Position numbers and translations under genes: made by a program. Shown here piece after piece: positions 14,171-15,225 of a stretch of DNA of 64,000 nucleotides. The notes below the pieces were generated by a model. The model was given only the letters and a program-made list of their open reading frames with translations, was not told where the DNA came from and made no database searches. Every line of letters begins with the position of its first letter. The first letter of the stretch is position 1. The DNA comes from a virus, in IMG/VR virus record IMGVR_UViG_3300035232_000453; one strand, given 5' to 3'.

Positions 14171-15001
14171 ATGACAAACCCACTAATTCAGGCATATAAA
14201 AAGCCTTCTTTGTTTATTCCACTACCAAGCCAGGGCAAGTATTATAAAACCAAGCCAAAACTTAGTATTGATAACGAACTAGCAGTATATGCCATGACAG
14301 CAAGGGACGAACTTATTACTAAAACACCAGATGCTCTGTTTAATGGAGAAGCCACTATAAGTTTAATTAAAAGTTGTTGCCCAGACATTGAAGAACCAGA
14401 ATCAATGCCTGTAAACGATTTACTTGTAATTTTAATTGGTATTAGGCAAGCAAGCTACGGTAAAGAAATTGACGTAGATGTAAAGTGTCCAAAGTGTGAA
14501 TTTCAAAACCAATTGCAACTAGATGCAAACGTAATGCTATCCACAATAAATAATGATCCTATAGATCCTAGTGTAACATTGCCAAGTGAGTTTAAAATTA
14601 TCTGTAATCCTTATACATTAACCGACAGAACTTTATTACAAGTTCAACAAGTTAAACAATCAAAAATGATACAAGGACTAGCAGATGAAAACTTAGATGA
14701 TGTTGATAGACAAAATTTATTCGGAAAAACATTTGTTGAAATTGCAGAACTTACTGTTGATTTAATTACTAACAGTATTAGCAGTGTACAAGGAAAAGAT
14801 ACCGACGTAATTGATGATAAGGAAACTATAAGAGAATGGTTACAATCAATTACTAAATCAGATTATGATTTAATAAAAAGCAAAATTGAAGAATTAAGTG
14901 AAAGTGGACTAGAAACTGAATTTAATGCTAACTGTCAAGATTGCGGTCATAGTTGGAAAACTGGTATTGACTTAGATATTGCAAATTTTTTCGAGGGCTG
15001 A
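14171..15001 (+). CDS. gp26: Baseplate hub assembly protein, gp26-like
   Basis: NPL..YKKP...LPSQGKYY, MTARDEL, IRQASYG, two CxxC pairs (CPKC, CQDC), ends NFFEG; GGAG RBS. Confidence 0.8.
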   Translation: MTNPLIQAYKKPSLFIPLPSQGKYYKTKPKLSIDNELAVYAMTARDELITKTPDALFNGEATISLIKSCCPDIEEPESMPVNDLLVILIGIRQASYGKEIDVDVKCPKCEFQNQLQLDANVMLSTINNDPIDPSVTLPSEFKIICNPYTLTDRTLLQVQQVKQSKMIQGLADENLDDVDRQNLFGKTFVEIAELTVDLITNSISSVQGKDTDVIDDKETIREWLQSITKSDYDLIKSKIEELSESGLETEFNANCQDCGHSWKTGIDLDIANFFEG

Positions 15002-15018
15002 TAGCTTCTCGTCAGCCC
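14983..15018 (+). other. Predicted -1 programmed ribosomal frameshift signal
   Basis: Overlapping slippery heptamers A AAT TTT (14983-89) and T TTT TTC (14986-92); GGGCTGAT/GTCAGCCC hairpin at 14995-15018. Confidence 0.7.
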
Positions 15019-15225
15019 GAACAAATCATTGAACTTGTAAATAAGTATAACAAAGATCTAAAAGAAACCGAAGGAAGATATTTAGATATCGTAATCAGAA
15101 CTGACGGGGCTTTTAGCTATCAAGACATTATGACTATGCCAGTAGACAGTATTAGATTACTAGTTGAGCGTATGAATGATAGAGTTGAAGAAATGAATGC
15201 TGCTAGAAAACCTAGTGGACGTTAA
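14989..15225 (+). CDS. gp51-like baseplate hub assembly segment, probably the -1 frameshift extension of gp26 (absent from the ORF track)
   Basis: 78 sense codons FRGLIASRQPEQIIELVNKYNKDLK...GAFSYQDIMTMPVDSIRLLVERMNDRVEEMNAARKPSGR*; no ATG/GTG/TTG before the 48th codon; SY..IM.MP pattern resembles gp51. Confidence 0.7.
   Translation, partial: FRGLIASRQPEQIIELVNKYNKDLKETEGRYLDIVIRTDGAFSYQDIMTMPVDSIRLLVERMNDRVEEMNAARKPSGR

Follow-up and report, generated by a model that had tools for sequence, protein, structure and literature searches.

Does a chaperone-type gene of a giant phage give one protein, or does a change of reading frame close to its stop codon give two? The question is raised by an open reading frame (ORF) of 276 amino acids (aa) on IMG/VR virus record IMGVR_UViG_3300035232_000453, of which a stretch of 64,000 nucleotides was analysed (the window), belonging to an uncultured marine giant T4-related phage. 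The ORF is best explained as the only chaperone gene of the gp26/gp51 family in a giant T4-related phage of the Rak2/PA5oct/Atu_ph07 type. From its sequence and that of its homologues we consider it highly probable that the gene undergoes a programmed -1 frameshift with predicted products of 276 and 351 aa; that it serves as an assembly chaperone is likely. The features discussed below are listed with their coordinates in Table 1.

The zero frame runs from an ATG to a TGA and its 3' end reads GCA AAT TTT TTC GAG GGC TGA. As claimed in an earlier note on this DNA, this end holds two overlapping heptamers in the X_XXY_YYZ phase, A_AAT_TTT and T_TTT_TTC, and an 8-bp hairpin of seven Watson-Crick pairs and one G-U pair begins 5 nt past the first of them. 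The hairpin is 2 nt away from the second heptamer. Counted from 14986, the open -1 frame has 79 codons (80 if counted from 14983) before a TAA at 15223-15225, with no ATG, GTG or TTG ORF of at least 40 aa in the window's -1 frame at this locus. The sizes given there for the two predicted products, 276 and about 351 aa, were also reproduced (276 aa and 272 + 79 = 351 aa). A slip on either heptamer gives an identical peptide, and the junction of the long product reads ...ANFF/RGL...; the predicted tryptic peptide across this junction is TGIDLDIANFFR, and the zero-frame C-terminal peptide ends FFEG.

Homologues were sampled with a degenerate DNA pattern built on a conserved motif of the N-terminal part, approximately 700 nt 5' of the slip site, which gave 120 IMG/VR loci, nearly all of them true homologues as judged by a hidden Markov model (HMM) built from 64 diverse family members. 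This search motif is independent of the slip site and the sample is unbiased toward it. The pattern loci, seven close relatives and six cultured jumbo phages (A4, BF, SCTP-2, PA5oct, Atu_ph07 and XacN1) together provided 125 complete genes, 120 of which have T_TTT_TTY in phase at the same codons. A_AAT_TTT stands alongside this second heptamer in 65 of the 125 and is the sole heptamer in four, and at least one of the two is present at these codons in 124. T_TTT_TTY is found in all six of the cultured jumbo phages named above and also in phages Aeh1, CC2, LPCS28, S-CAM9 and LG08.

The departures from this pattern were informative. Four environmental genes (L081, L030, L088 and L026) have lost T_TTT_TTY and kept GTA AAT TTT, placing the slip site one codon upstream; their zero frame ends Asn-Phe-Ser, with the second Phe lost, and the -1 product is still Asn-Phe-Phe. 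The sole exception among the 125 is the first copy at locus L057, which has TTC TTT and a -1 frame of only two codons and is a tandem paralogue without the extension. This locus (IMGVR_UViG_3300005805_000765, 1403-3361) carries two gp26-like genes in tandem: copy 1 (1403-2306) has the non-slippery AAT TTC TTT, and copy 2 (2309-3140) has T_TTT_TTC followed by a 79-codon extension.

The frequency of the heptamer far exceeds what the codon usage of these genes predicts. When homologues were grouped into clusters (<50% identity), 48 of 51 clusters had T_TTT_TTY, where codon usage in these genes would predict 27.5% (binomial probability about 1e-23, with clusters that are partly dependent on one another). 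Of 30 Phe-Phe pairs elsewhere in these genes only two were slippery; 117 of 120 genes use TTC for the second Phe at the site, as against 23% TTC usage in the rest of these genes; and the wobble base before this second codon is invariably T. The resulting T run is six T's long, or seven in a few homologues.

Past the slip site, the -1 frame of the homologues stays open for a median of 78 codons versus 10 for the +1 frame, and in the 5' direction it extends only three codons (median) beyond the heptamer. The extensions of 41 clusters (<55% identity) align almost without gaps from Phe-Phe onward. Because the frame is open over 78 codons and is conserved at the protein level across clusters of such low identity, it is not a relic ORF; the extension is a real conserved protein domain that starts at the slip site. 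For the window extension, an AlphaFold2 (AF2) model with a mean predicted local distance difference test (pLDDT) score of 93.3 shows a long helix, a short helix and a second long helix. Neither this extension nor the 41 family members matched Pfam or PHROG, and comparison of the extension profile with PDB sequences returned chance matches only. Fold matches were to generic helix-loop-helix arrangements (best Z 5.7), from which no function was drawn. Of 121 genes, 64 have their first ATG more than 30 codons into the -1 frame, and in 19 it lies between codons -2 and +8 relative to the slip site. Alignment of homologous 3' ends, which the earlier note had proposed as a check, thus revealed a conserved slippery Phe-Phe and a conserved -1 phase with no conserved start, and the note's proposal of a -1 frameshift gains support from the heptamer, from the start-less -1 domain and from an enrichment of RNA structure downstream.

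The hairpin dominates the minimum free energy (MFE) fold of 14983-15060 (-15.9 kcal/mol, z -2.1, 7 of 200 shuffles being as stable). Within the window's own clade (11 members) 97.7% of cells in the hairpin are paired, and one C-G pair has become U-A twice and U-G once, a compensatory change; covariation is only modest because both reading frames of the region are coding. The 50 nt past the heptamer, compared over 49 clusters, fold with -9.9 kcal/mol, and control windows taken from these genes with -6.0 kcal/mol (mean z -1.39, Wilcoxon 1e-6). Different clusters have different structures, and about 45% of clusters have nothing notable at this position.

The 276-aa product matches PF12322 T4_baseplate over residues 18-275 (E 9.2e-21, 75 bits versus a cut-off of 24.5) and also phrog_150 'baseplate hub'. 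In 64 diverse homologues, residues C106, C109, C255, C258, F273 and F274 show either no variation or conservation of 90% and above, the two Cys pairs being zinc-ribbon-like. A Foldseek search of BFVD with the AF2 model of the protein (pLDDT 93.7) gave predicted T4-like gp26 proteins as the best matches (E 2.5e-24, TM 0.89), followed by Aeromonas phage 25 gp26 (E 6.8e-7) and further 'baseplate hub assembly' proteins; all of these targets are predicted models and not solved structures. Among 150 representatives of 1,367 homologues, the stop codon falls 0-11 residues past Phe-Phe in 143 and an in-frame C-terminal fusion occurs in none. The HK97 chaperone 2ob9_A was matched by the gp26-like model with a Foldseek E of about 1 (probability 0.25), no better than unrelated helical matches, and we treat this likeness of two structures, one of them a model, as a lead and not as proof. 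A wide VIA search with the same model returned matches that were driven by its helical hairpin, and these were set aside.

T4 itself is described with separate genes 26 and 51. Searches by tblastn with -1 peptides found the arrangement of the window in ordinary T4-like phages: Aeh1, CC2 and LPCS28 (Straboviridae), S-CAM9 (Kyanoviridae), phiM9 (Pootjesviridae) and LG08, where T_TTT_TTC (T_TTT_TTG in phiM9) stands 12-15 nt before the stop and the -1 frame extends for 58-65 codons up to the start of the next gene. Like the window, these six phages have an in-phase heptamer, a -1 extension and one PF12322 gene per genome; they differ in that the extension is about 16 residues shorter and its profile similarity to the jumbo-phage family reaches only E 1.2e-4. 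Their gene order is gp2, a gp54 tube-like gene, the chaperone gene, an unknown gene of ~485-640 aa and gp3 or another tube-like gene; in Aeh1, CC2, LPCS28, phiM9 and LG08 the gene lies between a phrog_45 tube-like gene and an unknown of ~610-640 aa. Judged by gene order, this position is that of a putative tail assembly chaperone next to a tape measure. Whereas the T4-like gene lies between a tube-like gene and the ~485-640-aa gene, that of the window stands alone on its strand beside the head module. In the T4-like records the small -1 ORF is annotated as 'hypothetical' or 'baseplate hub assembly catalyst (gp51)' and never as a slippage product; the 57-64-aa 'baseplate hub assembly catalyst' ORFs of S-CAM9, phiM9, PX29 and phiAS5 are long-form fragments. 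In phiM9 (L143:2501-2692), which has T_TTT_TTG, an ATG overlaps the gp26 stop (TGATG), and reinitiation and frameshifting are both conceivable there.

In T4, gene 25 follows gene 26 and the transcription of gene 51 is divergent, so the label 'gp51-like', which the earlier note had given to the -1 frame, is not grounded in T4 synteny. It holds by another route. T4 gp51 (gene 51, L004:4480-5229) is itself a PF12322 protein (E 3.9e-52, 177 bits, residues 1-201) and a paralogue of gp26 (BLASTP 2e-6). From the Phe-Phe position on, the ~50 C-terminal residues of gp51 match the T4-like -1 extensions in alignment (hhalign E 7.9e-5; BLASTP 2e-5 for the gp51 tail against the S-CAM9 extension), and the profile of jumbo-phage extensions, the window's included, aligns over its full length with that of the T4-like extensions at the E value given above. 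The gene is therefore homologous to both gp26 and gp51 of T4. When the jumbo gp26-like profile was compared by hhalign with T4 gp26 or gp51 as single sequences, only short local matches resulted. PF12322, commonly taken to denote the 'gp26 baseplate protein', matches gp26 and gp51 alike, and annotations made with this model cannot separate them.

T4 has two PF12322 genes, whereas Aeh1, S-CAM9, phiM9, LPCS28, A4, PA5oct and Atu_ph07 have one each; together with the similarity of the gp51 tail to the extensions, this indicates that gp26 corresponds to the short form and gp51 to the long form. In T4 as in the window, the short form (gp26, 208 aa; gp51 has 249 aa) is a PF12322 protein that ends just past Phe-Phe, a few residues beyond it in gp26, and the long form, predicted in the window, is the same domain with a helical tail of ~50-80 residues starting at Phe-Phe. 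T4 differs in having two separate, divergent, paralogous genes and non-slippery codons (TTC TTT at the Phe-Phe of gp26), in place of one gene with a predicted -1 slip, and the window differs from T4 in a shared part ~70 residues longer and a 79-aa extension too diverged for a direct match to gp51. The task that one gene and a slip would accomplish in this phage is thus divided between two genes in T4.

Similar pairs of products are known from other long-tailed phages. Lambda gpG/gpGT and P2 E/E+E' resemble the window in a shared N-terminus, a -1 slip (predicted for the window) on an X_XXY_YYZ sequence near the 3' end, a start-less extension and a role in tail assembly, the last for the window by analogy. 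They differ from it by having no detectable sequence similarity and a shared part about half as large, without the four-Cys zinc-ribbon-like motif. The lambda slip site is G_GGA_AAG, and Xu, Hendrix and Duda are said to have described in 2004 that the -1 frameshift of tail assembly chaperone genes is conserved.

A review describes G-T frameshifting as a conserved property of long-tailed phages, 'except T4' (PMC5009743). T4 gp26 and gp51 have been described as hub assembly chaperones, gp51 being needed for assembly and absent from the particle (Leiman et al., 2010; PMC3004832). Our literature searches on a gp26 frameshift found no paper directly on it; the principle came to light through papers that cite Vladimirov, Gautam and Davidson (Virology, 2022). 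According to one of these, some T4-like phages, rather than frameshifting, have a short chaperone gene together with a longer, fused one (PRFect, PMC10885494); a 2025 paper (PMC12846349) refers to Vladimirov et al. both on poly-T slip signals in T4-like TAC-N genes and on the isoforms TAC-N and TAC-NC; and by both accounts Vladimirov et al. present T4 gp26 and gp51 as short and long tail assembly chaperone forms. As far as these citing papers relay it, the principle for T4-like phages was thus already published in 2022, and the window is a well-supported, unannotated new example. The earlier note's view of the pair as the equivalent of lambda G/GT agrees with these accounts and with the T4-like synteny.

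Taken as a programmed -1 frameshift, the locus would work as follows. Most ribosomes would stop at the TGA at 14999 and release the short form, while a minority would slip back by one base, with two tRNAs, on A_AAT_TTT or T_TTT_TTC, probably aided by the hairpin, and would read the -1 frame to 15225. The long form would lack the last two residues of the short form and carry a helical domain of 77 residues in their place. If the analogy with lambda G/GT and T4 gp26/gp51 holds, the shared N-terminal part would bind the tape measure or hub complex and the extension would recruit another tail component; neither form would be expected in the finished virion.

Of the other routes to the same conservation pattern, transcriptional slippage fares best, although we consider it improbable. 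Here the polymerase would add one U in the T run and some mRNAs would encode the long form in frame, and one base inserted into the conserved run would indeed give the same protein. Productive runs, however, usually have 8-9 or more identical bases (general knowledge; review PMC5009743), and in this family the run is fixed as xxT TTT TTC in codon phase and is not lengthened. The four lineages with a relocated slip site have even cut the run to five T's and yet keep a perfect A_AAT_TTT heptamer for tandem slippage, and the enriched RNA structure downstream would matter to ribosomes and not to insertion by a polymerase. In the PRFect paraphrase (PMC10885494), moreover, the 'other mechanism' of the 2022 paper is two separate genes.

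Separate translation of the -1 frame, by termination-reinitiation or from a non-canonical start, would give a 'gp51-like' product of ~8 kDa and is very unlikely. The GenBank records of S-CAM9, phiM9, A4, BF and SCTP-2 are annotated in this style, with small ORFs of 53-64 aa, and an ATG lies at or near the stop in some lineages (ATGA or TGATG overlaps in Atu_ph07-type phages and phiM9) and within the -2 to +8 interval in the 19 genes mentioned above; independent initiation is possible in this minority of lineages with a junction ATG. The family as a whole has no conserved start codon, however, and initiation at the first ATG in the 64 genes where it is distant would delete the first conserved helix; the window's own frame lacks even an ATG, GTG or TTG ORF of the length stated. 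Conservation of the -1 amino acid sequence begins at the heptamer itself, and T4 gp51 has the homologous tail fused in frame to its PF12322 domain. Separate translation also leaves unexplained why the in-phase heptamer is invariant and why it has moved by one codon in four lineages. That there is no recoding at all, the heptamer reflecting a conserved Phe-Phe in an AT-rich genome and the -1 frame being chance or a relic, can be dismissed as next to impossible: Phe-Phe is conserved in the family, T4 gp26 included, and 77% of the Phe codons of these genes are TTT, but the second codon is almost always TTC after an invariant T, T4 gp26 and the extension-less paralogue use the non-slippery TTC TTT, the 78-codon frame is open and conserved as protein, and a chance origin of the signal is excluded.

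Several points do weigh against a programmed frameshift in a chaperone gene. We infer the occurrence and efficiency of the slip, and the chaperone mechanism, from sequence. Downstream structure is enriched and not universal, z falling below -1 in 55% of clusters, and in the window the 2 nt between the family-wide heptamer and the hairpin are fewer than the usual 5-9 nt. Compared directly, the window extension has no similarity to T4 gp51 (E 1.2; E 0.052 for the family profile), and the link between the two consists of two profile steps with E values of about 1e-4 each. The structural match to HK97 2ob9_A is weak in VIA (Z 6.0, rmsd 5.2 A, 102 of 107 aligned). Finally, the window gene does not stand in the classical order of tube, chaperone and tape measure: it is divergent from two ~650-aa, weakly tape-measure-like proteins and has no adjacent tube gene.

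The chaperone-type gene adjoins the head module, T4-type head genes being found at 4344-10082; the window also has gp46/gp47 genes, a gp55-like sigma factor and baseplate genes from 22846 on (Pfam/PHROG). In the earlier note the gene was placed beside two tape-measure-like genes, and two genes of ~650 aa do adjoin it; their identity as tape measures is weakly supported. Neither the 637-aa nor the 672-aa protein matched Pfam or PHROG, and both have Gly/Ala-rich hydrophobic stretches. An Atlas feature search with the 637-aa protein gave 30 matches of which 15 carry tape-measure Pfam families (scores 0.93-0.94), and its counterpart in PA5oct is present in the virion by mass spectrometry, according to the GenBank annotation of that phage. 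Tandem paralogy of the two was considered and is unsupported (BLASTP E 0.24). For the ~610-670-aa neighbours in general, BLASTP against T4 gp29 and against each other, and Pfam, were negative with regard to a tape-measure identity, which for the T4-like neighbours and the window pair alike is weakly suggested by length, position and language-model features. A gene for a 793-aa protein at 22846-25227 (+) lies directly 5' of gp5-like and gp25-like genes; the lysozyme/transglycosylase part at the N-terminus of the protein matches tape-measure PHROG phrog_2276 (E 2e-23), and the protein is an alternative tape-measure or tail-lysin candidate.

Elsewhere in the window, a convergent 147-aa ORF (15222-15665, -) has its stop overlapped by the end of the -1 extension (15225); a gene-free gap at 15666-16802 adjoins a gene for a GIY-YIG (SegE-like) nuclease (16353-16802); and a single ORF of 3,565 aa occupies 31462-42159 (+), 3' of a gp6-like baseplate wedge gene. 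A blastn search with 13900-15700 against the phage collection gave zero matches.

Table 1. Position, strand and basis of the features at the gp26/gp51-family locus and of its two large neighbours
Feature	Position	Strand	Basis or remark
Zero-frame ORF, 276 aa; short form (TAC-N, gp26-like), putative gp26/gp51-family baseplate-hub or tail assembly chaperone	14171..15001	+	PF12322, phrog_150, AF2/BFVD; TGA stop at 14999-15001
Slippery heptamer A_AAT_TTT	14983..14989	+	X_XXY_YYZ phase; 5 nt 5' of hairpin
Slippery heptamer T_TTT_TTC over conserved Phe-Phe codons, family-wide slip site	14986..14992	+	X_XXY_YYZ phase
-1 extension, 79 codons + TAA; predicted C-terminal domain of long form (TAC-NC, gp51-like tail)	14986..15225	+	No own start codon
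RNA hairpin, 8 bp, 8-nt loop; candidate frameshift stimulator, contains zero-frame stop	14995..15018	+	MFE fold
Divergent 637-aa protein, weak tape-measure candidate	12152..14065	-	Language-model features
672-aa protein, directly downstream of 637-aa gene	10132..12150	-	No family match

Neither slip nor long form is annotated in any of about 16 distinct GenBank records examined; in these the extension is unannotated, 'hypothetical' or a 57-64-aa 'gp51'. Four points may go beyond the 2022 paper: the giant-phage clade and its separate family of 78-residue extensions, the relocated heptamers, the tandem-copy locus and the missing annotation. We put it at a little under an even chance that the T4-like account leaves out Rak2/PA5oct/Atu_ph07-type giants and that the frameshift reaches, through the window and its ~120 environmental relatives, to the largest myoviruses. 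If so, the window and these relatives would add a distinct, uncatalogued extension domain with no Pfam, PHROG or PDB match and would show the natural migration of a slip site from T_TTT_TTC to A_AAT_TTT; the tandem 'short copy plus frameshifting copy' of L057 would resemble, and may be, an intermediate towards the two-gene solution of T4, with its separate short and long genes.

There are consequences for practice as well. Annotation pipelines, and proteomics of virions or infected cells for therapeutic jumbo phages (PA5oct, RaK2 and 121Q-like phages), lack the long-form protein, and a strictly conserved U_UUU_UUC with varied downstream structures constitutes a large natural data set for studies of frameshift signals. 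For the family itself, the gp26/gp51 proteins close the T4 exception: most T4-related phages, the giants included, appear to frameshift, and T4 appears to have replaced the frameshift by a duplicated gene.

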